Below are positions 7,364-18,516 of a DNA stretch of 32,000 nt, piece after piece. Where the stretch lies: NCBI GenBank assembly GCA_020833645.1, contig JAJHRQ010000009.1, positions 313 to 32,312 of the forward strand. Reading direction: 5' to 3'. The translations under genes and the position numbers were made by a program. The notes below the pieces were generated by a model, which saw nothing but the letters and a program-made list of their open reading frames with translations, was not told the DNA's origin and searched no databases. Source of the DNA: Thermocrinis sp. (GTDB lineage Bacteria; Aquificota; Aquificia; Aquificales; Aquificaceae). Every line of letters starts with the position of its first letter. Position 1 is the first letter of the stretch.

Positions 7364-8098
7364 TATTCTATAGACGCCAAAGGGTAAAAAGCTGTAGGTG
7401 GATATAAACTTCAAAAAGAGCTTGACAGATAACAGAGCAGTCAAAAAGGATGTGATAAAGCCCAATGCCAGAAGGTGAAACTCTTGGGTTGTAAATTGAG
7501 AGTGGGATTTGTAAAGGTCATAGCTCGTGGCGATCAACATGGTGGGAACTGCCAACAAGAAGGAAAACTCCGCGGACTGCTTTCTGTTTAATCCCATCAG
7601 CATACCACCGATGATAGTGCTGGCACTTCTGGAAACTCCCGGAACCATAGCCAAAGACTGAAATAAGCCTATTACAAAAGCCTTTTTTAGAGGTAGCTCT
7701 CTGATGTTCTGAAGATAGCAAAACCTCTCACAGAACCTGTCCGCAAAGAGTAGAAAAATTCCACCCAGAACCAAGCTAACTACCACCACCAGGTCGTTTC
7801 CGATAAGGTAGCCCTTAATAAACCTGTAAAGGGAAAATCCCAGCAGTCCAGTGGGCAAAAAGGCTACTATTATTCTCTCCCAAGTTTCTAAGTCTCTAAG
7901 CAAAGTCCCGAAATAGAGAAATACCACCGCAAGGATGGCACCAAGTTGGATGGAGATCTCAAAGCTCTTTGTGAATTCCGAATGGTCAAGTCCCAAAAGG
8001 TGGGCAACTAATATAAGATGTCCGGTGGAAGATACAGGCAAAAATTCAGTGAGTCCTTCCACAAAACCAAGGATTACTGCGTGCTTGACTTCCATCAC
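7325..8098 (-). CDS. uppP: Undecaprenyl-diphosphate phosphatase
   Basis: 257-aa polytopic protein with the BacA/UppP signature EGLTEFLPVSSTGHL. Confidence 0.95.
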   Translation of the reverse strand: MMEVKHAVILGFVEGLTEFLPVSSTGHLILVAHLLGLDHSEFTKSFEISIQLGAILAVVFLYFGTLLRDLETWERIIVAFLPTGLLGFSLYRFIKGYLIGNDLVVVVSLVLGGIFLLFADRFCERFCYLQNIRELPLKKAFVIGLFQSLAMVPGVSRSASTIIGGMLMGLNRKQSAEFSFLLAVPTMLIATSYDLYKSHSQFTTQEFHLLALGFITSFLTALLSVKLFLKFISTYSFLPFGVYRILAGLTYAYFFLL

Positions 8099-8838
8099 CC
8101 TTGCTCCAAAAGGACTTTCCTTAGGAGCTCCCGATCTCCTTTAACTTCCTCCAAAATAGCTCGGACGCTTCCTAACACAAAGAAGAGTTGCATCCTCACA
8201 GGGAAGAGGTTGTCCTTTTCTATCCAGAGCTTCCATCTTCCCTTTGGTCGCAGTAGCCCTTTAGTTTCTACATTGGGAGTTACGTCCACAACCCTTGCGT
8301 AGTAGTTGCCCGCGGGCACTTTAATTTCCTCTTCCCCAACCACTTTGTAGGGTATGTGATACTTTCTGTCGTCGTAGAACATTTTTATGACTCCTTCGTC
8401 ATTTTGGATAGAATTTTTGTAGAGCACAAGGCTTGCGGTGTATGGGTCTGGATAGCCATCAAAGGGATAAACCCTCTCCTCCTCCCTTTCCACCTTATCC
8501 GTTAGCTCCACATAGTGGGTTTCCTTTACATAGATCCTAGAGTTCTTAAAAATGTAGTGCTGTCTTCTTTTAAACTCTCCTTCTTCTTGATGGTAGAAAA
8601 ACTCCCTGGGCATCAGGTTCTTTGCAGATATGACCGCATATCCGTAGTTATACACCCTTTTTACGAGCCCTCCCACGTTTATAGTTTTGGCATAGCTGGA
8701 AACTACAAGGTCATCTCCCTGCAATTTGTAGGTTACGCAGGTTTGGGCCACGGGGAAAAATAGATAGTATGCTTTGTAGCACAGTGTTAGCTCTTTGGCA
8801 AGTAGGCTAAGAGGCAAAAGCAAAAGCAGTAAGAACAT
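8095..8838 (-). CDS. Secreted hypothetical protein (DUF3108-like)
   Basis: 247 aa with an N-terminal signal sequence and beta-rich composition. The family name is from recollection. Confidence 0.6.
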   Translation of the reverse strand: MFLLLLLLPLSLLAKELTLCYKAYYLFFPVAQTCVTYKLQGDDLVVSSYAKTINVGGLVKRVYNYGYAVISAKNLMPREFFYHQEEGEFKRRQHYIFKNSRIYVKETHYVELTDKVEREEERVYPFDGYPDPYTASLVLYKNSIQNDEGVIKMFYDDRKYHIPYKVVGEEEIKVPAGNYYARVVDVTPNVETKGLLRPKGRWKLWIEKDNLFPVRMQLFFVLGSVRAILEEVKGDRELLRKVLLEQG

Positions 8839-8904
8839 AGAAGAGCATTATAATATAGGCTATTCTTTTATATGTGATGAAATTTAAAGTCTTAGTGTTT
8901 TTGA

Positions 8905-9011
8905 TAAGCTTATTTGAGGGCTACCCATTACCTCTGATATAGGCGTGGGAACAGGCTAAGCCTGTATCCCTTCTCGCATTTTGGGGGGTGGGTAGCCCTC
9001 AAATAAGCTTA
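8905..9011. repeat. 23-bp perfect inverted repeat forming a long hairpin with a nested stem
   Basis: TAAGCTTATTTGAGGGCTACCCA (8905-8927) pairs perfectly with 8989-9011. The inner stem is ACAGGC/GCCTGT (8951-8965). The two internal loops are about 23 nt each. Confidence 0.9.
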
Positions 9012-9086
9012 AAGCGGTCATCCCTGATGGTGGTAATGGGGCAGGCTTTTGCCTGACCTCTCAAAGAATAGTGGGAGGCCGTATAA
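8905..9086 (+). ncRNA. Candidate IS110-type bridge/guide RNA, or structured 5' leader of the recombinase gene
   Basis: About 180 nt directly upstream of an IS110-family recombinase. It contains a long stem with large internal loops plus a second hairpin CAGGC-TTTT-GCCTG (9042-9055). Confidence 0.3.
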
Positions 9087-10205
9087 ATGCTATATGCAGG
9101 TGTAGATGTAAGTAAGGACAAGGTTAGTTTGGCTGTTTTAACGAGCGGAGGAACCAAGCTAACAAGCGGAGACTTTGACATCACAACGGAAGGACTAAAG
9201 CTTTTGGAACTGACCCTGAAACATCTAAAGGACGAGATAAGCATGGCTATTGAACAAACGGGAACCTATTCAATGCCTGTAATTCTCTATTTGATGGAAA
9301 GGGTGGAAGGGTTAAGGATTTACTTAGTGGATGGTCTGAACTTCAACAGGTTTATAAAGCTTGAAGGAAGGAAAAAGCAGGACAAGGCGGACGCAGTCAG
9401 TTTAGCAGAATACCTGAGGAGAGGGCTACCAGCAAGGCTAATAACAAGCAAGGACATAAAGGCATACGGGTTAAAGGTTCTGATAAGCGAAAGGGAACAC
9501 TTGCTGAAGGTAAAAAACCAGATAGAAAACAGGCTAAGGCAACTTGTGGAGACGATATTTCCAGACAGCAAGACATTAAGCAAGCCAGTTTTTTGGTCAG
9601 AGATAAGGAAGGGAAGGGCTATCCTTGACTGGAAAAGGCTAACGGACAAGGCAGAAGTGTTATCAACCATTCTAAGGGAGAGGAAAATATGGCTGGAAGT
9701 AGTCCATAGCTTGGAGGAGACGGAAAGGGAAATAAACGCATTCCTACGGGCATACTATCCTGAGGACTTAAACATCCTAAAAAGCTTTGGGTTCTCAGAG
9801 ACAACCATAGCATACTTCATAAGTGTTTATGTGGATATAGGAAGGTTCAAGGATGTTAAGGCTTTTAAAAGCTATATGGGCTTGGGCTTGAGAATATACC
9901 AGTCAGGGAAAAAGGAGAAAAACGTAGTCAATAGCTACACCAACAAATACATAAGGAAACTGCTTTATATGTATTTAGTCCAAGCGGTAAGGGAAAGAAG
10001 CAACCACAGGAGGGTTAAGGAATACTACCTTAGGCAAGTGGAAAAAAGCGGAAGCAAAAAGAAGGCAATATTAAAGACTGCTGGAAAGGTTATTGAATGG
10101 GTTTATTACTGTCTTAAGCATAAAGAACCTTTCAGATGGGAGGCTAACTATGAAACACAACAGGAAAACCTTAGCCAAGTTAATAGCGAACAGACTGAAG
10201 ATTAA
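9087..10205 (+). CDS. IS110-family DEDD transposase/recombinase (Piv-like), apparently intact
   Basis: 372 aa. The N-terminal RuvC-like DEDD motifs are YAGVDVSKD, AIEQTGTY and KKQDKADAVSLAEYL. The C-terminal Tnp domain is GFSETTIAYFISVYVDIGRFKDVKAFKSYMGLGLRIYQSGKK, including the conserved QSG serine. Confidence 0.9.
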   Translation: MLYAGVDVSKDKVSLAVLTSGGTKLTSGDFDITTEGLKLLELTLKHLKDEISMAIEQTGTYSMPVILYLMERVEGLRIYLVDGLNFNRFIKLEGRKKQDKADAVSLAEYLRRGLPARLITSKDIKAYGLKVLISEREHLLKVKNQIENRLRQLVETIFPDSKTLSKPVFWSEIRKGRAILDWKRLTDKAEVLSTILRERKIWLEVVHSLEETEREINAFLRAYYPEDLNILKSFGFSETTIAYFISVYVDIGRFKDVKAFKSYMGLGLRIYQSGKKEKNVVNSYTNKYIRKLLYMYLVQAVRERSNHRRVKEYYLRQVEKSGSKKKAILKTAGKVIEWVYYCLKHKEPFRWEANYETQQENLSQVNSEQTED

Positions 10206-10359
10206 AGAGGAAACGGTGGAAAGGGTGATAAAGGAGTTTGTGGAAACGGTGCGGGAGGAAGTAAGGAAGGGAGGAGTAATTGAAATCCGAGGGCTGGCAA
10301 GCTGGAAAAAGAACAAAAAGGGAAAAGTAAAGGTTAAGAACTTCATAAGGGAGGGTTAA
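10150..10359 (+). CDS. Truncated HU/IHF-like small DNA-binding protein
   Basis: The SD GGGAGG lies 6 nt upstream of the ATG at 10150. The 69-aa product has an HU-like helical N-terminal half (LAKLIANRLKIKEETVERVIKEFVETVREEVRKGGVIEIRGL) but lacks the long beta-arm. The ORF overlaps the recombinase 3' end. Confidence 0.55.
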   Translation: MKHNRKTLAKLIANRLKIKEETVERVIKEFVETVREEVRKGGVIEIRGLASWKKNKKGKVKVKNFIREG

Positions 10360-10361
10360 AG

Positions 10362-10592
10362 ATGGCATGGATGGACTTTAAACACATCCCAGCTAAGCAG
10401 GTTATGATTGCTAAGGTTATTGAAGTGTTAGAGGAAGTGGAACCGAACCTTTGGAGGGTCAGGGTAAAACACAACTGGATAGGAGTTCCTGAGATTATAG
10501 AAATAGCAGGAGAAAGACCACAGGAGGGAGAGATATTAGACCTTTACCCTGTGCCATACGAACAATGGAAAGAATGGACACAAGGGCAATAA
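10362..10592 (+). CDS. Hypothetical protein (prophage accessory/regulatory module)
   Basis: 76-aa ORF with the SD GGAGGG upstream, tightly following the HU-like ORF. Confidence 0.5.
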   Translation: MAWMDFKHIPAKQVMIAKVIEVLEEVEPNLWRVRVKHNWIGVPEIIEIAGERPQEGEILDLYPVPYEQWKEWTQGQ

Positions 10593-10915
10593 AGGAACAA
10601 CTCAGGGAAATAGAGGAAGAACTGAAGAGGGAAGTTCTCAGGCTGTGCGGAGAACTTGGGATTAAAGACAGAACCCTAAAGAACTTTGAATATAAAACAA
10701 TAAGCCTGTGCATGCTTGAAATCAGAACGGAGGGCGGGCGGGTCTATAGATACCAACAACTGAAGGGAGAACTGGAGAGAGGAAAGACAATAACCATAAA
10801 CAACTGGAGGCACGAGGAGACACCCTTTAGAACACTAAACAGACTTATTAACCTTTACAGGGCTACCAAGGGCGTAATGAAAGCCAACGAATACCTGAAG
10901 AGGGAACCCTGTTAG
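10565..10915 (+). CDS. Hypothetical coiled-coil protein (prophage accessory/regulatory module)
   Basis: 116-aa ORF overlapping the previous ORF, with a charged helical N-terminus (IKEQLREIEEELKREVLRL). Confidence 0.45.
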   Translation: MERMDTRAIKEQLREIEEELKREVLRLCGELGIKDRTLKNFEYKTISLCMLEIRTEGGRVYRYQQLKGELERGKTITINNWRHEETPFRTLNRLINLYRATKGVMKANEYLKREPC

Positions 10916-10919
10916 TTTC

Positions 10920-11123
10920 TCACGGGCGGACTAAAAGAAGGAAAGCCCAGAAGAGAATAGCAAGGGTCATAACAAACAGCCAAAGCCAGAAGGCAAAGGG
11001 CAAAGTAGGAGAGGGTTTATTTTGCCATGGAGGAGCTTTCTCAGGGTCTGGCAGTTTAGAATGCTGAACCTCTTCCGAGGGCTTCCTTTCCTTCCTCATA
11101 TAGTCCCTATCATACAGTCCCAT
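10920..11123 (-). CDS. Small membrane protein with a C-terminal TM helix
   Basis: 67 aa with a polar, Pro-rich N-terminus followed by FAFWLWLFVMTLAILFWAFLLLV. A GAGG SD lies 7 nt upstream. Confidence 0.45.
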   Translation of the reverse strand: MGLYDRDYMRKERKPSEEVQHSKLPDPEKAPPWQNKPSPTLPFAFWLWLFVMTLAILFWAFLLLVRP

Positions 11124-11297
11124 GGCAGAACCTCAACTTAGGGTGAAATTTTAACCCTTAAGTGTGGGACAGGTGCAAAGTTTAAAATTAGGTGATAAGT
11201 AATACAAGCCCACAGGCAGGCGGGCTTACGCCCCGCCCCTGCCCTGCTTGGCCTTGGTGGGAACGCTAACACATGGACAAAAATGGCCTTACGGCCA

Positions 11298-11357
11298 CTG
11301 GGAGAGGGGGAGGGTCTCCAAGGTCTAAGGCTCTGGCCGACCCTCCCCCTCTCCCAG
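11298..11357. repeat. Perfect 19-bp-stem hairpin
   Basis: CTGGGAGAGGGGGAGGGTC (11298-11316) is the exact reverse complement of GACCCTCCCCCTCTCCCAG (11339-11357). The loop is 22 nt. Confidence 0.95.
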
Positions 11358-11378
11358 ACCCTCACCCCCACCCGCCAG

Positions 11379-11499
11379 AGCCTTAACCGTGGCTGGCTGG
11401 CAGACCAGCCGCAAAGCTAACGCTTAGACAACACATAAACGCTTAAGTGCTAATGCTTAAGCTTGGTCCCACAAGCCAGCCAGCCACTGGGTTAAGGCT
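11379..11499. repeat. Long interrupted inverted repeat (10 + 12 bp stems) enclosing short direct repeats
   Basis: AGCCTTAACC-G-TGGCTGGCTGGC (11379-11401) pairs with GCCAGCCAGCCA-CTG-GGTTAAGGCT (11475-11499). Inside, AACGCTTA occurs twice (11419, 11438) and GCTTAAG twice (11441, 11455). Confidence 0.85.
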
Positions 11500-11599
11500 A
11501 AAGATTTCTAAAATTTGATTTACATAAACTTTCAGAAAGGTTTAAAACATCATTTTTAGAACCGATTTCAACGACGGGCGGGAAGGCGGGCGAGGGCAA

Positions 11600-12691
11600 C
11601 TAAGGAAGTTCAATAATCTTAGGGCCTGAAGACAGGTCTAAGCCAGAACTGGCGGGCGGGCGGGCGGAAGGGCGGGCAACCTCAATAACGATATAGCCAT
11701 AGCCACCAACGGAAGGAGAGGGAGAAGGAGAGGGCGAAGCAGAAGGAAAGGAAGAAACAGAAGGAGAAGAGGGAACTTCGGGAGAAGAGTAAGCTGAAGG
11801 ATAGGAATAGGAGGGAGAGGAACCAGAAACGGAGGAAGGAGGAGAGGAAAACCCAGAGGAACCAGAAGGAGGAGAGCCAAAGAAAGAAGGTCTTTTTTCA
11901 TTCTTTACTCCTTTCTCCTGAGCCTGAGAAACCTTAGGCTTGGGAATTATCCCACCGTGGGTTTTAACGTAGGAACCAAGCTGAATAATGGCAAAGAAGG
12001 CAACCGCAACAGCAACGAAAAGCATAACGGGAGGCCTACCCTTAACTCCTTTCATGTGTTCCACGAGGGCGGAACGATAAAGGACAAAGATTTTAGGGTC
12101 ATACTTAACAATGCTTTTTTTGACAGGGACACCACCGATTATGGTCTTCAAAACTGCCATATTGGAAATGCCAAAAACACGGAGGCTTACAAGGCGGAGT
12201 TCAATCTCAACAAGGTTTCTTATGGCTTTGTTCATCCTTTGAATGCTTTGGGTGATGATGAAGAAGTCAAGTCCTAAGTGTCTGTGATAGTCAAAGAAGA
12301 ATTTTTGAAGCTGGGTTAGTTCTGTGTCTTCATCAATAATAGACTGGAACTCATCCAGATAGAAAATAACCTTTCTATAGCCCAACTCACCAAAAAGCTT
12401 GGGAATTATGAACCTTTTCCAGTAATCCACATTGAGGATAGTCAGGAAAGCATTCCTGTAATTGCCATCATAATGCATATTGCAAAAGGAGAGGGCTGTG
12501 GCGAGGAATTCATCCAAAGTCCAAAGGTTATTAACCTCTTTGCCGAGGTAAAAGGAAAGCTTAGCCCTGTCCAAGCCGTCAATGTTGGAAACAACAAGGT
12601 TAGTATCCTTCTTCAGGTCTTCAACAATCCTTTTAACCGCATAGTAGGACTTACCAGCCCCAGGGCTACCTGTTATAAACACTATAGCCAT
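11600..12691 (-). CDS. Zot/pI-like filamentous-phage assembly ATPase
   Basis: 363 aa with Walker A at the extreme N-terminus (FITGSPGAGKSYYAV), Walker B-like VIFYLDEFQ, a single TM (VMLFVAVAVAFFAIIQLGSYV) and a Ser/Pro-rich periplasmic tail. It follows the pVI-like ORF as in Ff. Confidence 0.8.
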   Translation of the reverse strand: MAIVFITGSPGAGKSYYAVKRIVEDLKKDTNLVVSNIDGLDRAKLSFYLGKEVNNLWTLDEFLATALSFCNMHYDGNYRNAFLTILNVDYWKRFIIPKLFGELGYRKVIFYLDEFQSIIDEDTELTQLQKFFFDYHRHLGLDFFIITQSIQRMNKAIRNLVEIELRLVSLRVFGISNMAVLKTIIGGVPVKKSIVKYDPKIFVLYRSALVEHMKGVKGRPPVMLFVAVAVAFFAIIQLGSYVKTHGGIIPKPKVSQAQEKGVKNEKRPSFFGSPPSGSSGFSSPPSSVSGSSPSYSYPSAYSSPEVPSSPSVSSFPSASPSPSPSPSVGGYGYIVIEVARPSARPPASSGLDLSSGPKIIELP

Positions 12692-12694
12692 GGC

Positions 12695-12916
12695 TTAGAC
12701 CCTGAAGAAGGGAATAAGGTTAAGGACAAACCTAATAGTTAGGGCGGTTCCCAATATGCCTATAGCCTGAGGAATTCCAGAGTTAGCCAAAAACCAGTTA
12801 TCAATGGTAAGGGAAGCCAGAGGAGATATAGGGATAGACAAAGCAGACAGCAAGGAAAGGACAAAGGAAAAAATACCCTGAAGCAGAGAAACAAAAGCAC
12901 AATAAACGGCACACAT
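12695..12916 (-). CDS. pVI-like small polytopic membrane protein (minor virion protein candidate)
   Basis: The ATG at 12916 is preceded by the SD AAGGAGGG, 7 nt upstream. The 73-aa product is very hydrophobic and sits between the pIII-like and Zot-like genes. The tracked start at 12949 is probably too long. Confidence 0.6.
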   Translation of the reverse strand: MCAVYCAFVSLLQGIFSFVLSLLSALSIPISPLASLTIDNWFLANSGIPQAIGILGTALTIRFVLNLIPFFRV

Positions 12917-12918
12917 GG

Positions 12919-14946
12919 CTAAACCCTCCTTATTGGGATATTTTTCCAAAGTTCAAAGATTGACATGGAAACCAAAAGGGCAGAGATAAAGCCAAAGATA
13001 GAAGCAAGCCCGACAAAAGAGTAAAAGATTAAGTTCCTTAGTTCATCAAAATTAGCATAAAGCATTTGTTCCTGTTCCCTACACTTATCAGAGTTAGGAA
13101 GGGCATCCTGAAGAGTATTAGTCAGGCTAACCACGGAAACCACCTCTTGGGTTATAAGCCAGTTAATGGCAGGAATAAGTTCCTCTTCTGGAAAGATTTC
13201 AACAACAACCTCAACCGCAGGAATGGAAATAGTATCAGGAGAAACATAAGGAGAACACCGAGAAGGAAAAGGAGTAGAAGGGCGGACAATAAAACGCTGA
13301 GGAGAAGGAATAGGAAGAGGCTGGATTAAAGTATCAGGGTCAAGCTGAGGGAGAAGGTCAGGAGAAACCTCAATATAAGGAACATCTCCCAGAGGAAGAG
13401 GAAAAGGGTTTAAGTAAGGAGAAAGATCACGCAAAGGTAAAGTCTGAGAGACAGTCCGACAGATTTCTCCTTTCTCATCATCTGTTAAATCATCAAAGTT
13501 AGGAGGGAGAGGGTTATATTCAGGAACTGAAAGAGAAGGAGAGTCAGGAGGGCGGGCACGAGGGATATTAGGCCAAGGGAGAATAATCTCCTTGGGATAG
13601 GTGGCAGGATTATCCCAATCAAATTCACAGACCTTACGACATGAACATTGACCAGAAAGAACAGGTCCAAAATGTGTATGAAAACAATTATCAACAACAA
13701 AACTAACCACAGAACTACAATTACAAACATAGCAAGGGTCATAACTAAAATGCCATTGGCCACAATCAAAGGGAGGGATATATTCACACACGAGATAAGG
13801 ATTACCATCCTGTCCAAAGCACTTAGAATAATAACTATATAGTGATGAATCACACCACCAAGCATTAGTATCATTAGGCCCCCAGGGCGCATTTCCATTC
13901 CCAGCAATATAAACGGGAGCATCCGACTGGAAAGGAAGAGGAAACGCAGCATTAGCATAATGAAACTGATAAGAAACTAATACACCAGCCAAACTTGAAA
14001 CATAAAGAAATTTAGGAGAACGAGGATCATCTCCAGAAAGACCGTGAGGAACAGTAAGAAGATTACCGAAATGGTGAGGGTCAAAATAATCAGGATACCA
14101 ATGGTAAGGCGACCAATCGGAATTTGGAACGGTTTTATAACCTACTAAAAGACCTCTTTCACATACGGCGTAAATATCATAACAGGTAGAACTAACAAGG
14201 CGAGGAACTGGAGGGCAAGGCTGACCAATCTCAGGCAGGTTAGAAAGGTCAGGCAAAAGGGAAGGGTTAAACCCATTGGGAACAATAATCCCAAAACCAA
14301 GCCCTGAATGATTAACACTTTTCCACTGAAGGTATAAAAGGCGACGGATTAAAAGGGTTTGTTCCTCTACAAGATTAACATAGCCAAACTCCAAAAGAGG
14401 GTTAAAAAGCACATTGAACCCAAGCTTAACAATCTGAGAAACTGAGGAGAGAAAACCAGAGAGAAGGCGGTTAAAAAGCCTTGTATTATTAACAGAGTTC
14501 TTTAAATAGAAAAGGTCAGGGTATAAAGCCCTCAGGGCGGGAGCTATTACCTCTATGCTTTGTTTAAGCTCAACTTGACGGAGAACCAAATTCCTTAATT
14601 TTGTTTGTAAATCCGTAGCGGGCTGGAGTGTAGAATAGGAACGAGGATTTTGGATAAAGTCCGTATAAACATCCTTAGCAGAAGCAAACTCAGAAAGGGC
14701 AGACTGGTAGGCTTGCTTTTTCATGCGAAAATCTTCAAGCTGAACATAATCAACATTTTTAGACATTTCCCACATCCTTTCCAGAATTTCCAACGAGTCA
14801 GAGAGGGCGAGAGACCTTTCATAAAGATAGTTCAGATACTGAACGACGGCGTCATTATCCACCTTGGGCATCTGCAATTTAGCCTCATAGACCACAGAAG
14901 CAGGAAAGCCCAGACCAAAGAGAAAGAGAAGGAGAACCCACCGCAT
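12919..14946 (-). CDS. pIII-like adsorption / virion-cap protein candidate (675 aa)
   Basis: It has a signal peptide (MRWVLLLFLFGLGFPASVV), a helical N-terminal third, a central Cys/aromatic-rich domain, a Pro-rich linker (PLPPNF...PFPLPLG...PLPIPSP) and a C-terminal TM anchor (FVGLASIFGFISALLVSMSIF). Confidence 0.65.
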   Translation of the reverse strand: MRWVLLLFLFGLGFPASVVYEAKLQMPKVDNDAVVQYLNYLYERSLALSDSLEILERMWEMSKNVDYVQLEDFRMKKQAYQSALSEFASAKDVYTDFIQNPRSYSTLQPATDLQTKLRNLVLRQVELKQSIEVIAPALRALYPDLFYLKNSVNNTRLFNRLLSGFLSSVSQIVKLGFNVLFNPLLEFGYVNLVEEQTLLIRRLLYLQWKSVNHSGLGFGIIVPNGFNPSLLPDLSNLPEIGQPCPPVPRLVSSTCYDIYAVCERGLLVGYKTVPNSDWSPYHWYPDYFDPHHFGNLLTVPHGLSGDDPRSPKFLYVSSLAGVLVSYQFHYANAAFPLPFQSDAPVYIAGNGNAPWGPNDTNAWWCDSSLYSYYSKCFGQDGNPYLVCEYIPPFDCGQWHFSYDPCYVCNCSSVVSFVVDNCFHTHFGPVLSGQCSCRKVCEFDWDNPATYPKEIILPWPNIPRARPPDSPSLSVPEYNPLPPNFDDLTDDEKGEICRTVSQTLPLRDLSPYLNPFPLPLGDVPYIEVSPDLLPQLDPDTLIQPLPIPSPQRFIVRPSTPFPSRCSPYVSPDTISIPAVEVVVEIFPEEELIPAINWLITQEVVSVVSLTNTLQDALPNSDKCREQEQMLYANFDELRNLIFYSFVGLASIFGFISALLVSMSIFELWKNIPIRRV

Positions 14947-14948
14947 AG

Positions 14949-15368
14949 CTACCTACGAAAGATAATGAAGTAGCTAAGGATGGTGGCGAAGATAATCCAA
15001 GCAGTCTTAAGGGACATCAAAAGCAAACGCATAAGAGGGTGGTTTGCTATATCTATTGTGGTATGGATGAAGGGAGGGAGATTAACCACAATGGGCGGTG
15101 GGGGGTTATCTTCAACATTCAAACGGAAGGAGGAAAGGAAAAGGAAAAGGTCAGTGTTTTTAGCAGAGTTTATAAAGTCTTCCAGAACCCGAGAGATTGA
15201 AGGGCAAGAACAGGAAGAGGAACAATAAGAGTGATCAGCTATAAAAACGGAATTCCTTTCTCTACAAACGCAAGCCCGACCCTGTCCAGTGTTTTCAAAC
15301 CGACAGGTTAAGGCAAGGGCTGAATAGGAGGAAAGGAGGAAAAGGAGGAAAGCAATAACTGCCTTCAT
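14949..15368 (-). CDS. Secreted Cys-rich protein with a C-terminal membrane anchor (minor virion protein candidate)
   Basis: 139 aa with a signal peptide ending ALA, the motif GQGRACVCRERNSVFIADHSYCSSSCSC, a poly-Pro stretch and the TM AWIIFATILSYFIIF. Confidence 0.6.
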   Translation of the reverse strand: MKAVIAFLLFLLSSYSALALTCRFENTGQGRACVCRERNSVFIADHSYCSSSCSCPSISRVLEDFINSAKNTDLFLFLSSFRLNVEDNPPPPIVVNLPPFIHTTIDIANHPLMRLLLMSLKTAWIIFATILSYFIIFRR

Positions 15369-15580
15369 TTTGAAGACCTCTTAAGGGCTTTACCTACCAG
15401 AATGGCGGAGAAGGTTCCAAGAACGGTGGAAAGACCTAAGACCATCTTAAGGAAGTCCGATTTAAATTCCTGTATGGTTTGGTTTAATTGGTTAAGGGCA
15501 TTCACATAGTCCAAACACTCACACTGAGACTGAGCAAAGGCAAAGGCTAACAGACTAAAAAACAACCCTAAGAACCGCAT
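15365..15580 (-). CDS. Second coat-protein-like small protein
   Basis: Using the ATG at 15580, the product is 71 aa. It has a signal peptide MRFLGLFFSLLAFAFA, a polar segment, the TM MVLGLSTVLGTFSAILVG and a basic tail KALKRSSK. Confidence 0.55.
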   Translation of the reverse strand: MRFLGLFFSLLAFAFAQSQCECLDYVNALNQLNQTIQEFKSDFLKMVLGLSTVLGTFSAILVGKALKRSSK

Positions 15581-16094
15581 AGGCACCCCCCAGAAGACCG
15601 AAAGCAAAAGAGGAACCGATGAAAACCTTTAAAAAGCCTTCCTTTACACCCTGAAAAGTGTCTATAAGGTTATTAACGGACTGGCAGGCAAAACCTGAAC
15701 TTGAACCTGAACCTGAACCACCTAAAAATTCATCAGGAAAGCAAGGAGAAGAAGAACAGGAAAAAGAGGGAGGAATAGGAATGCCCTCAGAAGAGGAAGA
15801 AGAGGAGCAACTAATGGAACCATTGGAAGAAACACGACAGCTAAAGGACAAACCCTCACAGGAGCTAAACAATGAAGAGCAATAAGAATAATTATCATCA
15901 AAGTTAGGCTCTGAAGGGTCATATATGAAAAATAAACGGAGACCCCCATCATCAAGAACATAACAAACGCAACCATTACCAGCATATGGAGGAGAAGGTG
16001 AAAAAGTGGCAGGATAACAACACATTTTAGAAAAGGCGGGCAAGGAACCCGCCAGAACTAAAAAGAGGAACAGGACAACAGGAAGGACTGGCAT
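15555..16094 (-). CDS. Secreted Cys/Ser-rich protein with a C-terminal membrane anchor, paralogous N-domain to 14949-15368
   Basis: 179 aa with a signal peptide, the motif GNGCVCYVLDDGGLRLFFIYD...NYSYCSS, poly-Ser/Gly linkers and a C-terminal TM. Its start overlaps the upstream stop as TAATG. Confidence 0.6.
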   Translation of the reverse strand: MPVLPVVLFLFLVLAGSLPAFSKMCCYPATFSPSPPYAGNGCVCYVLDDGGLRLFFIYDPSEPNFDDNYSYCSSLFSSCEGLSFSCRVSSNGSISCSSSSSSEGIPIPPSFSCSSSPCFPDEFLGGSGSGSSSGFACQSVNNLIDTFQGVKEGFLKVFIGSSFAFGLLGGAYAVLRVVF

Positions 16095-16300
16095 TATGCC
16101 CTGTTTAGAGCCTTCTTTATTACCCTGTAGGTGAGGAAGAATATCAGGATGGAAGCTACCGCAGAGAGCAGTCCCTGAATACCAGAAACAAGGCTATTTA
16201 CCGCATTCATTGCATCCTCAAGTATTCCAGCGTGGGCAAAACCAGAAGAAGCAAGCAAAACCAAGCCAGAAACTGCCAACAAGCTAAAAAGTTTCCTCAT
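16094..16300 (-). CDS. Major coat protein (pVIII-like) candidate
   Basis: 68 aa with a signal peptide ending AHA. The mature product is about 44 aa, with an acidic N-terminus (GILEDAMNAV), a hydrophobic core and a basic C-terminus (YRVIKKALNRA). The SD AAGGAGGTG lies upstream, and there is an ATGA overlap with the preceding ORF. Confidence 0.7.
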   Translation of the reverse strand: MRKLFSLLAVSGLVLLASSGFAHAGILEDAMNAVNSLVSGIQGLLSAVASILIFFLTYRVIKKALNRA

Positions 16301-16596
16301 GATGGCACCTCCTTTAAGGATTCTTGGGTTTGGGTTTGGGACTGATTGATTGATTGGTTTAATTGATTGGTTAATTGGCTTTCATAGTGTTTAAGAACAA
16401 CATCATAAACGGAATGCCAGTAATAGCTGTCCTCCTTACCCTTAGACCAGTCTATAGGGAAAGGAAGCCTTTCCACCTCATCCAGAAAGGCAAGAACAAC
16501 CTTTTTAATGTGGGCTTTATCATCTTTGAAGAGGGAAAGGAAGGCATAAGGCGAAGAGTAGTATTTGAAGAAGTCCTTAATCTTTTTCTTTGCCAT
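16297..16596 (-). CDS. Hypothetical soluble protein with a Q/N/S/T-rich tail
   Basis: The ATG at 16596 is preceded by the SD AGGTGG. The 99-aa product has no TM segment. The tracked GTG at 16605 is the less likely start. Confidence 0.5.
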   Translation of the reverse strand: MAKKKIKDFFKYYSSPYAFLSLFKDDKAHIKKVVLAFLDEVERLPFPIDWSKGKEDSYYWHSVYDVVLKHYESQLTNQLNQSINQSQTQTQESLKEVPS

Positions 16597-16606
16597 GGTT
16601 TCCACC

Positions 16607-16738
16607 TCATAGCTTTTTTAAAATCCATATAGGAATGGTAAGCACCCAGATAAAGAAGAAAACACCGGTAAAGAAGGGCACGGTTCCAGTGAAAGCAGTA
16701 GAGAAGGCGGAAACTATCTGAGCCACTATATCATCCAT
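16607..16738 (-). CDS. Untracked 43-aa hydrophobic ORF (pVII/pIX-like candidate)
   Basis: My own translation is MDDIVAQIVSAFSTAFTGTVPFFTGVFFFIWVLTIPIWILKKL. Its ATG shares the A of the upstream TGA (TGATG). It lies between the ssDNA-binding candidate and the coat gene, as gVII/gIX do in Ff. Confidence 0.5.
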   Translation of the reverse strand: MDDIVAQIVSAFSTAFTGTVPFFTGVFFFIWVLTIPIWILKKL

Positions 16739-17055
16739 CACTTAGCCCCTTTCTTATCATCCATCACGGGAATAGGAGAAGAAAAGTCCTCAAAGACAGA
16801 AAAGCCACCCACCGATGGGAAGGTATCACCCAAAGAAATGGTCAAGCCTGAGATAGGGACATCAATAACCACTCCAGGAGCTATTGGGAGATTAACGGGA
16901 GCAGAGACAACAAGGTATAGCGGGAAATCAGGCTTTTCATTCCTTAGCCTACCGTAAAGCTGATAGATGGCACCCTGACGGCCATTCTTTTCCCAAGTTC
17001 TCCTTTTCTCCACAAGGAGAACCTGAAGCTTAAGAGGAGAACCAAAGCTTTCCAT
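16738..17055 (-). CDS. ssDNA-binding protein (gpV-like) candidate
   Basis: The ATG at 17055 is preceded by the SD AGGGGGTG. The product is 105 aa, sits directly after Rep, and has a beta-rich pattern reminiscent of Ff gpV (GRQGAIYQLYGRL...FPLYLVV...APGVVIDV). Confidence 0.45.
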   Translation of the reverse strand: MESFGSPLKLQVLLVEKRRTWEKNGRQGAIYQLYGRLRNEKPDFPLYLVVSAPVNLPIAPGVVIDVPISGLTISLGDTFPSVGGFSVFEDFSSPIPVMDDKKGAK

Positions 17056-17217
17056 ATTGCACCCCCTTTTTAGGGATTTCATTATTCAATGTAAGGGATG
17101 GGAAAAAGGGAAAGAAAAAACCAAGCCTTTTAAGTTTAAAGATAGCTGGAGAATAGGCAAAAGTTAGGAAAAAGGAGAGGGTTAAAGTGGAAAGTGTTTT
17201 TAACTTAATGCTAAGGT

Positions 17218-18165
17218 TTAGGAATACATATTCCTAAAGACCTTGGACAGGGAGAAGAGTAATCCGTCCTTCTCTAAGGCACCGCAATCATAAAAGCACC
17301 TGTAAAACTCACTAAAGGCTATGCCCAGAGGCTTGTAATAAGCCCTGTAAAGGGTGGAGATAGGGACAAAGCCATAGAGGGAAGCTTGGGAAGTCTGAAG
17401 GGCAACCCTCTTTAAAAGCCTTGACATGAAGAAAAGGCGAACCCTGAAATACCACATAAGGAGGGTAGAAAGGCGAACCCGAACCTGACCATCCGAGGAA
17501 ATGGAAAAAGACCAATATTTATGGTGGGACTTTACCAGATATTTTAAAAGGTAAGCTTTTATCTTCTCTGTGTCCCTTCCTATAAACTGGACATCCACTC
17601 CTTGGAAGGCTGAGAGGCTTTTTCCTGTCCTTGTATCCTTCCACCACTTATGAATTTGTTCCACCTTGACAAAGGGAAAGGAAACGAGAAGGTGAATGTG
17701 AGGGTAATCATCTTGATGAGGCTCAGGAACGGCAAAATAAAGGAACTGTTCTATTCCATATTTCTTTTTTAGATAGACACGGAAACGGCGGAGGAAGTCC
17801 GAGAGCCAAGTCCCAATATAAGCCCAAGCATCTTGGATAGATATATCCCTACTTAAGGTTAAGGTGATAAGAACCCAGTTAAGCTTTGGGATTTCCAGAT
17901 GCTTTAGCCAAGCGTAATGGTTCCTACGGAAATAACGAAGCTTTGGCATGCTTACGATTGCCTTTCCAGAAGAAGAGAAAACAGGAAGGGAGTTTAGTTT
18001 TTTGAGATACCAAAGGACATATAACTTAGCCAACTCTAAGGCATTATGGGAATTTCTCACATCACGGCCACCTTCCCAGTCCGAGAGGATTTCCAGAAGG
18101 TCAGGGTTTAGTTCATTAATGTTATAGGTGATGTAAGGCACAGGAATAAGATAACACAAGGGCAA
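17218..18165 (-). CDS. Rolling-circle replication initiator (HUH Rep, gpII-like)
   Basis: 315 aa carrying RCR motif 1 VLITLTLS, motif 2 YPHIHLLVSF (HUH) and motif 3 KAYLLKYLVK (YxxxY). The tracked start is TTG with no clear SD, so the N-terminus is uncertain. Confidence 0.75.
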   Translation of the reverse strand: MPLCYLIPVPYITYNINELNPDLLEILSDWEGGRDVRNSHNALELAKLYVLWYLKKLNSLPVFSSSGKAIVSMPKLRYFRRNHYAWLKHLEIPKLNWVLITLTLSRDISIQDAWAYIGTWLSDFLRRFRVYLKKKYGIEQFLYFAVPEPHQDDYPHIHLLVSFPFVKVEQIHKWWKDTRTGKSLSAFQGVDVQFIGRDTEKIKAYLLKYLVKSHHKYWSFSISSDGQVRVRLSTLLMWYFRVRLFFMSRLLKRVALQTSQASLYGFVPISTLYRAYYKPLGIAFSEFYRCFYDCGALEKDGLLFSLSKVFRNMYS

Positions 18166-18303
18166 GAAAAGAAAAAGACAAAGATAGAAGGAAGTAAGGG
18201 ACAGGTTAAGGGATTAAGTCCATAGGGCAGTAAGGGAAAGGAGAAAGTGAAAATATGATTTAGGTCATATTGGGAGGGCTTGACAAAGTCCTATAATGGT
18301 GGT

Positions 18304-18516
18304 ATGCGAGTTAGAGTTTTGATCACTCCCAAGGAGGGACTTTTGGACCCAGAGGGGAGGGCGGTAAAGGAGATCCTTGAGGATAACGGATACAAGGTTA
18401 AGAGTGTAAGGGTAGGCAAGGTGGTTGAGTTGGAGGTGGATGACCCATCCCAAGTTAAGGAGATGGTGGAAAAGTTCCTATACAACCCTCTCATAGAGGA
18501 GTACGTGATAGAATGA
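18304..18516 (+). CDS. purS: Phosphoribosylformylglycinamidine synthase subunit PurS
   Basis: 70 aa from the ATG at 18304 (MRVRVLITPKEGLLDPEGRAV), coupled to purQ. The tracked TTG at 18280 is probably too far upstream. Confidence 0.9.
   Translation: MRVRVLITPKEGLLDPEGRAVKEILEDNGYKVKSVRVGKVVELEVDDPSQVKEMVEKFLYNPLIEEYVIE

Follow-up and report, generated by a model that had tools for sequence, protein, structure and literature searches.

Bridge recombinases of the IS621/IS110 group act together with a bridge RNA, and structures of the complex are available (8wt6-8wt9; Durrant et al., 2024, PMC11208160). Expanded, cargo-bearing IS110 loci have also been described, in which recombinase and bridge RNA move many kilobases; a 9.2-kb element was validated, and half-matched boundaries are common among such loci (bioRxiv 10.64898/2026.08.14.744561). 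IS110-family transposases are carried by several filamentous phages (inoviruses) as well, namely the Neisseria Nf/MDA prophages and the Thermus phages phiOH16, Zuza8 and Zuza27 (Paulinoviridae; PMC11437467). IS110-bearing inoviruses and bridge RNAs are each known separately; their union as a retargeted phage integrase with promoter replacement is unreported in the literature searched. Here, we analyse a stretch of 32,000 nucleotides (nt) from Thermocrinis sp. (GenBank assembly GCA_020833645.1, contig JAJHRQ010000009.1, positions 313 to 32,312), hereafter the window, which holds an inovirus-like prophage at the start of purS. We consider it highly probable that this prophage is an intact, probably active temperate filamentous Thermocrinis phage whose integrase is an IS110-family bridge recombinase with a bridge RNA encoded in its left end (LE). 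The reading builds on what was observed here: the insertion and its empty site, the protein families, a covarying RNA structure, four guide matches, and the co-variation of target loop and host flank.

Insertion site and predicted left-end RNA

The host belongs to Thermocrinis (Aquificaceae) and the chromosome comes from a hot spring, in line with the original prediction, which had guessed an Aquificales-type thermophile. Scanning species-representative genomes with the protein of the flanking DUF3108 gene led to Thermocrinis metagenome-assembled genomes (MAGs), four of which (L004-L007, 91-95% identity) have an empty site: position 8863 is joined straight to 18304, giving CATTATAATATAGGCT-AT-GCGAGTTAG. 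This alignment, a check that the prediction had itself proposed, delimits a discrete insert of 9,440 bp (8864-18303). The claim of a prophage inserted between a DUF3108-like gene and purS thus holds, and so does the block proposed for it (8855-18291), although its exact ends have to be moved. The left junction (attL) reads ...ATAGGCT-AT|TCTTTTATATG and the right junction (attR) ...TATAATGGTGGT|AT-GCGAGTTAG. There is no target-site duplication. A core dinucleotide AT is common to both junctions, with a single copy in the empty site and one at either junction (8862-8863; 18304-18305); it forms the first two bases of the purS start codon (ATG 18304-18306), and the native purS -10 box TATAAT (8849-8854) lies 7 nt 5' of it. 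The elements of the insertion are as follows, with LTG and RTG for the left and right target guides, LDG and RDG for the left and right donor guides, and aa for amino acids.

8095-8838, minus strand: DUF3108 flanking gene (profile search)
8849-8863, plus strand: host side of attL, with -10 box TATAAT, 7-nt spacer, left-target sequence ATATAGGC (8853-8860) and core AT (empty-site alignment)
8864-9086, plus strand: LE with the predicted bridge RNA (fold, covariation, guide-to-flank matches)
8905-9011, plus strand: target-binding hairpin, with LTG AUAUAGGC at 8937-8944 and RTG CUCGCAU at 8973-8979
9014-9082, plus strand: donor-binding hairpin, with LDG AUGGUGGUA at 9027-9035 and RDG AAAGAAUA at 9063-9070
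9087-10205, plus strand: IS110-family DEDD/Ser RNA-guided recombinase, 372 aa (PF01548, 1e-24; PF02371, 2.5e-12; NF033542, 149.9 bits against a cut-off of 140)
10150-10359, plus strand: HU/IHF-like small DNA-binding protein, 69 aa (PF00216, 1.3e-8; weak IHF-beta match)
18166-18303, plus strand: right end (RE), with predicted outward promoter (18270-18297), ATA sub-terminal repeat (18293-18295) and left-donor sequence ATGGTGGT (18296-18303)
18304-18516, plus strand: attR core AT (18304-18305, the start-codon bases), then purS

The 223-nt LE folds far better than its shuffles (z -7.2), into two hairpins that each contain an internal loop. Each of the four guide segments has its match. In the target-binding hairpin, the 5' arm carries the LTG, identical to the top strand left of the insertion (8853-8860), and the 3' arm the RTG, the reverse complement of ATGCGAG at 18304-18310. 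In the donor-binding hairpin, the LDG of the 5' arm is identical to the right end of the element (18296-18304), and the RDG of the 3' arm is the reverse complement of TATTCTTT (8861-8868), that is, of the core and the left end; the donor is bracketed by an ATA...TAT repeat. When 17 distinct left ends are aligned, 97.3% of the cells in the proposed helices are paired, and compensatory double changes occur in 12 pairs, where shuffles give 5.3±1.5 and slid controls 0-1. The donor loop hardly varies (entropy 0.21 and 0.03 bits), and the target loop is hypervariable (1.44 bits for the LTG and 1.19 for the RTG, versus 0.19 elsewhere). Rfam, searched in both evalue and gathering modes, returned no bridge-RNA family and only spurious miRNA-type matches on the G+C hairpin. 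As alternatives for the core dinucleotide, CT (as in IS621) and TA were set aside: the conserved A|TTCTTTT and GGT|ATG junctions and RTGs ending in CAU fit AT best.

The recombinase matches NF033542, the NCBIfam model 'IS110 family RNA-guided transposase', and aligns with IS621 (8wt6; E 1e-11) with D6, E56, D98, D101 and the YQSG serine kept; its dN/dS is 0.10-0.13. The original prediction had recognised a recombinase motif here but had missed both the RNA-guided type and the bridge RNA in the left end, which explains the exact integration point. The HU-like gene starts within the 3' end of the recombinase gene and adjoins it in all relatives, including the distant L065. The ribosome-binding site of the recombinase, GGGAGG (9073-9078, with the region 9035-9040), falls within the outer stem of the donor hairpin, on its 3' strand, and RNA folding and recombinase translation may be coupled.

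The donor-recognised right end lies 8.1 kb beyond the recombinase stop, far outside the compact IS110 layout of about 1.2-1.6 kb, and the left-donor sequence has a single copy in the element, inside which no further right end lies. Since the donor loop reads two ends 9.4 kb apart, one of them unique, the unit recognised by the RNA is predicted to be the whole 9.4-kb phage. In the mechanism that we propose, the genome would circularize to 9,442 bp (8864-18303 plus one core AT), with an attP junction reading ...TATAATGGTGGT-AT-TCTTTTATA..., and the guide would be a bridge RNA of about 180 nt encoded just 5' of the recombinase. Its donor loop would read the phage's own junction, ATA-ATGGTGGT-AT-TCTTT-TAT, with the whole phage genome as cargo, and its target loop the last bases of the host -10 region (LTG, one strand) together with the start codon ATG and 4-6 coding bases (RTG, other strand). 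Recombination at the common AT would then place the phage between the promoter and the start codon of a leaderless gene.

Target-loop variation among relatives and insertion at start codons

Scans of IMG/VR and JGI metagenomes and exact-protein look-ups yielded more than 40 related hot-spring loci (numbered with the prefix L), whose phage genes are 83-95% identical. Complete integrated copies occupy at least 15 different sites, and the recombinase is always linked to phage genes, never apart from them in at least 40 loci. Every left junction reads N-A|TTCTTTTATA and every right junction TATAATGGTGGT|ATG. The LTG equals 8-10 nt of the left host flank in the window, L034-36, L038, L041, L044, L047, L048, L049, L052/L068, L066/L075 and L074, with a near-cognate version in L040. 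Where the right flank is known, the RTG corresponds to ATG plus 2-4 further bases, extending to 7 nt in the window, L048, L066 and L068. Among the later loci, fully cognate guide pairs occur in L066, L068 and L074. A permutation test was run on 13 element/site pairs, non-cognate ones included, with loops permuted among sites: LTG-to-left-flank matches numbered 91 of 117, against 65.3±4.3 after permutation, and none of 200,000 permutations reached the observed value (p<5e-6); the corresponding p for the RTG was 0.008. CAU ends every RTG, which makes ATG a constant part of the address, and every LTG begins with (G/U)AUA, overlapping a -10-like box at its end. The LTG and RTG halves are found in more than one combination.

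A more distant relative, L065, has a recombinase 53% identical to that of the window and a 6.5-kb phage, is binned in an Archaeoglobaceae MAG, and keeps the architecture. Its LDG and RE have changed together, to AUAGUGGUA/ATAGTGGTA; its left end was not placed with confidence and its target loop is non-cognate. The purS site is also occupied in L037 (about 2960-2970), by a prophage whose left junction has no core AT (ATAGGC|TTCTTTT) and whose target loop is of the L048 type. L074 and L075 had been considered as circular genomes; their host flanks show them to be integrated copies.

Every available right flank is a full-length open reading frame (ORF) that starts at the junction ATG. These flanks represent 10 distinct host genes, in which the insertion directly follows a -10-like box: purS and genes for a ferredoxin (4Fe-4S protein), QueH, a DnaC-like ATPase, a thioredoxin-like protein, an SDR and an MtnA-like protein, in addition to gyrA (L072), a phosphoribosyltransferase (L063) and an amidohydrolase (L065). 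In L072 (8752-8915), the prophage sits exactly at the start codon of the essential gyrA. In the cultured Hydrogenobacter hydrogenophilus (GCA_900215655.1; L063, 8819-14649), the right end GATAATGGTAGT|ATG abuts the phosphoribosyltransferase start codon, the recombinase side lying off the contig, and H. thermophilus (P0019), another cultured member of the Aquificaceae, carries a related prophage.

In uninfected relatives, only about 25 nt separate the divergent start codons of DUF3108 and purS (the equivalent of 8839-8861), so both genes must use very short leaders or none; the DUF3108 protein had no match in exact-protein look-ups. For Aquificae, this layout from -10 box to start codon has been described as the computational signature of leaderless genes (PMC3160421). 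The RE, conserved in all relatives, contains the best promoter-like site of the whole region, TTGGGA-16-TATAAT (18270-18297; 10/12), which faces outwards; GGTGGT comes next, and the junction A after it is spaced as is usual for a start. A promoter split across the junction (TTGACA in the RE and TATTCT across it) was discarded, the best scan site being complete within the RE. The sequence TATAAT-GGTGGT-AT of the RE would rebuild both promoter and start codon, so that the host gene (purS here, gyrA elsewhere) could stay expressed; such a replacement of the promoter by the phage end would explain how the gyrA site is tolerated. The displaced host promoter, in the integrated state, or the RE promoter, in the circle, would transcribe the bridge RNA and the recombinase gene.

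It is thus tempting to regard the bridge RNA as a naturally reprogrammable address, and we lean, if only slightly, towards this view. Sister phages 85-95% identical would differ almost only in two guide segments, each pair matching the interval from -10 box to ATG+6 of another leaderless gene, gyrA included; the surrogate promoter of the RE and the first two start-codon bases would keep that gene expressed, and the captured host promoter would drive the bridge RNA and the recombinase.

Several relatives are rearranged. L057, L058 and L059 are deletion derivatives of about 1 kb located at the MtnA-like gene, in which the LE, the bridge RNA and the first 78 recombinase codons are fused to the 5' part of Rep and the RE. 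L051 keeps the recombinase module and Rep and has lost the structural genes. At the SDR site, L069 and L071 have the recombinase gene split into ORFs of 78 and 283 aa and are probably inactivated copies. Outside the prophage, a short sequence at 419-568 of the window recurs in unrelated loci: a copy of 100% identity ends L050, joined there to phage position 10786, and copies of 87-91% identity lie close to the insertions in L052 and L033. This sequence, probably a repeated element of a mobile or structured kind, resembles a transposase N-terminus in its minus-strand reading but gave no Pfam match. An IS6-like fragment suspected at 300-500 has no support from Pfam and was dropped.

The phage genes and the alternatives

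ORFs were assigned from the ORF listing and from profile searches against Pfam, PHROG and NCBIfam. The plus-strand module that begins with the recombinase (9087-10915) converges on the minus-strand phage module, and the genes beyond those given above are listed here from the right end of the element leftwards.

17218-18165, minus strand: HUH rolling-circle Rep (PF23343 REP_ORF2-G2P, 42.6 bits against a cut-off of 27.8; phrog_3419; motifs PHIHLLV and YLLKYLVK)
16738-17082, minus strand: all-beta small protein in the gene V position, 114 aa (AlphaFold2 model, pLDDT 68)
16607-16738, minus strand: 43-aa hydrophobic protein, pVII/pIX-like by position
16297-16605, minus strand: 102-aa soluble protein with no assigned function
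16094-16300, minus strand: pVIII-like major coat protein, 68 aa (phrog_1646, 6.4e-4; PF19199, 16.6 bits, under the cut-off of 24.6)
15555-16094, minus strand: signal-peptide, C-anchored protein of 179 aa, conserved in relatives
15365-15580, minus strand: signal-peptide, C-anchored protein of about 71 aa, conserved in relatives
14949-15368, minus strand: signal-peptide, C-anchored protein of 139 aa, conserved in relatives
12919-14946, minus strand: 675-aa signal-peptide protein with C-terminal anchor, pIII-like by position
12695-12916, minus strand: pVI-like (Ace-like) minor coat protein, 73 aa (phrog_306, 6.6e-6; phrog_974, 1.7e-5; weak DUF2523 match)
11600-12691, minus strand: Zot/pI-type assembly ATPase, 363 aa, with S/P-rich C-terminus (PF05707, 72.4 bits against a cut-off of 20.3; phrog_197, 1.3e-37)
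11124-11599, no strand: variable non-coding region with a perfect 19-bp G+C-rich hairpin (11298-11357)
10920-11123, minus strand: conserved small membrane protein of 67 aa (ORF listing; dN/dS 0.28-0.43)
10565-10915, plus strand: conserved 116-aa ORF, no family match and no assigned function
10362-10592, plus strand: conserved 76-aa ORF, no family match and no assigned function

Eleven co-oriented minus-strand ORFs, from 18165 down to 11600, follow the gene order of the Ff phages within 7 kb: Rep, a small all-beta protein, small hydrophobic proteins, coat, large anchored proteins, pVI-like protein and Zot. The order is the same in L063, L065 and L066-75. With Rep, Zot, the pVIII-like and pVI-like proteins, this gene order, a precise empty site and an Aquificales host, the inovirus-like reading of the original prediction stands. 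All eleven ORFs are present as it had described, and the Zot/pI identity of 11600-12691, named beforehand as the point on which the reading would turn, is borne out by the profiles, as is the Rep. The tight packing that it described holds, with overlaps of 1-4 nt or gaps of 1-3 nt, except for a 135-nt gap 3' of Rep and a 26-nt overlap at 15555-15580. Its hairpin-rich region contains one very strong hairpin (11298-11357, fold z -5.9), the rest being unremarkable. This hairpin shows a compensatory change in L048 and is absent from several relatives; it is a candidate packaging signal, origin or terminator.

The small protein in the gene V position was predicted to be OB-like. Its model is indeed all-beta, and the top Foldseek matches are mostly OB, SSB and PriB folds, but they are non-significant (all E >= 0.077; TM-scores 0.3-0.4). 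Its conserved start is probably the ATG at 17055, which gives 105 aa, and its homologues are confined to Aquificaceae prophages; neither it nor Rep had a match in exact-protein look-ups. The 68-aa protein has the textbook features of pVIII: its signal peptide ends in AHA, its N-terminus is acidic and its C-terminus basic, and it has a transmembrane segment. Virions containing single-stranded DNA (ssDNA) would be the joint product of Rep, Zot and the coat proteins.

All 16 ORFs of the element are conserved in relatives, and dN/dS lies between 0.03 and 0.53 in every computable comparison, which places all of them under purifying selection as judged from these ratios. Values are 0.03-0.40 for the 102-aa and 43-aa proteins and 0.04-0.25 for the 76-aa and 116-aa ORFs, and highest for the 675-aa and 179-aa anchored proteins. 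The 675-aa protein is the most variable (29-100% identity to relatives; dN/dS 0.39-0.53). At 13375-14214 of its gene, many relatives otherwise 84-87% identical (L014, L016, L021, L034, L041) have unrelated sequence, and this swapped centre of the pIII-like protein looks like an exchanged receptor-binding domain. In many relatives (L013, L038, L041, L048), a further gene, about 500 nt long, separates the 76-aa ORF from the 116-aa one (window equivalents 10596/10561), and L001 has another module 3' of Zot, with a 145-aa HU-domain protein.

Several points weigh against our reading of an active phage integrated by its own bridge RNA. An exact search of IMG/VR for the RE-LE (attP) junction gave three unrelated chance matches, and the junction occurs in none of the fetched loci. 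The target loop is non-cognate at about one third of the occupied sites (L032, L033, L037, L057-59, L065); cognate versions exist for the same sites, in the window for purS (L037) and in L074 for the L033 site. The non-cognate loops possibly stem from loop exchange between co-resident phages, from guides acting in trans, from half-match recombination (recent preprints) or from assembly chimeras. The LTG register shifts by ±1 nt against the core, which is not described for IS621: the match is flush with the core at some sites, one base short at others and one base further in L074, the RTG register being fixed. The coat and ssDNA-binding assignments draw on weak profile matches and gene position, and the bridge RNA and the promoters are sequence-based predictions.

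Part of this would also suit an expanded IS110 element that captured the remnant of a defunct filamentous phage and moves as an RNA-guided insertion sequence with cargo, making no virions. Cargo-bearing IS110 loci reach about 100 kb, some with phage-derived DNA (bioRxiv 10.64898/2026.08.14.744561), an attP contig was not found in the loci searched, the phage is known here from its sequence alone, and the deletion derivatives are reduced to the ends (L057-59) or have shed the structural genes (L051). Yet none of the eleven phage ORFs is disrupted, purifying selection acts on them even between lineages as far apart as dS > 1, and Hydrogenobacter and L065 retain the same gene set. Moreover, it is mostly the adsorption-type proteins (p675, p179) that vary, a pattern expected of an infectious agent. 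We therefore regard a captured remnant as unlikely. Less probable still is that the IS110 gene belongs to an independent insertion sequence at the edge of a prophage that integrates by other means, through XerCD/dif capture or a host recombinase. Insertion sequences often nest in prophages, and some contigs break at position 10150 (L018, L022), but the left guide of the donor loop matches the far phage end, 9.4 kb away, at its single occurrence and with no internal right end. The empty site lacks both the recombinase gene and the phage, the two stay linked and both ends are kept at no fewer than 15 different sites, and profile and repeat searches of the element revealed neither an integrase of the tyrosine or serine type nor a dif-like repeat. 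The least credible alternative is a non-viral element, either plasmid-like with rolling-circle replication or integrative, in which the Zot-family ATPase is incidental: its structural proteins do lack significant family matches beyond the weak pVIII and pVI ones and the gene-V-like fold match is non-significant, but the combination from Rep to Zot in Ff order within 7 kb is diagnostic of inoviruses, the pVI-like protein is matched at a phrog E of about 1e-5, and related contigs are catalogued as viral in IMG/VR.

Comparison with known systems

If the temperate phage reading is right, the virus would carry its chromosomal address in an RNA that has visibly been rewritten from one close relative to another, and the rewritten addresses would be natural evidence on the evolution of bridge-RNA target loops. 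The proposed promoter swap suggests how a phage may sit at the start of an essential gene without killing its host. The recombinase, a thermostable bridge enzyme that uses AT as its core and has over 9 kb of natural cargo, would be of practical interest for genome engineering, and the related prophages of cultured Hydrogenobacter make the model testable.

The system shares with IS621 a DEDD and Ser recombinase, a non-coding RNA in the left end 5' of the gene, and a target loop followed by a donor loop. The polarity of LTG, RTG, LDG and RDG is also the same, with the left half-site read as its top strand in the 5' arm and the right one as its reverse complement in the 3' arm, as are the common core dinucleotide, the absence of target duplication and the ATA...TAT repeat around the donor. 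In contrast, the homology is distant (E 1e-11, only 11 bits-level similarity), the core is AT instead of CT, and the element measures 9.4 kb, with a whole phage between the recombinase and the right end. IS621 splits its -35 and -10 boxes across the junction and targets REP sequences, whereas here a complete predicted promoter lies inside the RE and gene starts are targeted. The ±1-nt register of the LTG and the HU-like gene coupled to the recombinase are further differences.

The Thermus and Neisseria inoviruses likewise have a provirus with a transposase at one end and the Rep gene at the other, and the Thermus host is thermophilic. The original prediction missed that IS110-bearing thermophilic inoviruses had been described (PMC11437467) and that the lineage is already present as uncharacterised IMG/VR contigs. 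No GenBank phage is a close relative. The sequences are unrelated to phiOH16 and to all GenBank phages (best Zot identity 27%): compared with phiOH16, Rep shows no similarity, Zot has an E of 4e-4 over 30 aa, and the recombinases are 24% identical. Moreover, the phiOH16 transposase gene adjoins gene II and is co-oriented with it, unlike here. In phiOH16 (L062, 1131-1144 and the non-coding region 5' of the transposase), a quick match gave a putative donor loop, GGUGUAGU...UUGUAAGA, corresponding to the contiguous GTGTAGT|TCTTACAA in the gap between transposase and gene II. The donor site of phiOH16 is thus likely to lie in that gap, with the cargo 5' of the RNA rather than 3', which suggests that the Thermus inoviruses also use a bridge RNA, with the phage genome on its other side. 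If this donor loop is true, the principle is probably general and the cargo geometry differs. The Thermocrinis phage also suggests a like mode of action for the IS110 'transposases' known for years from the inoviruses of Neisseria and Thermus. For these phages, neither a bridge RNA nor target-loop diversification nor start-codon targeting is reported in the literature searched, and our searches found no paper on a bridge RNA in an inovirus, on guide diversification among phages, or on start-codon or promoter targeting.

As in CTXphi-type inoviruses, the element combines a temperate filamentous phage, Rep and Zot with site-specific chromosomal integration. CTXphi-type phages rely on XerCD and dif; the Thermocrinis phage has no dif-like site and no dependence on host Xer, but its own RNA-guided recombinase, and it is found at gene start codons at no fewer than 15 different loci rather than at a dif site. 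Finally, whereas the cargo-bearing IS110 loci described so far carry mainly resistance and plasmid DNA, the cargo here is a complete and conserved virus genome, for which the bridge system would serve as a dedicated integrase.

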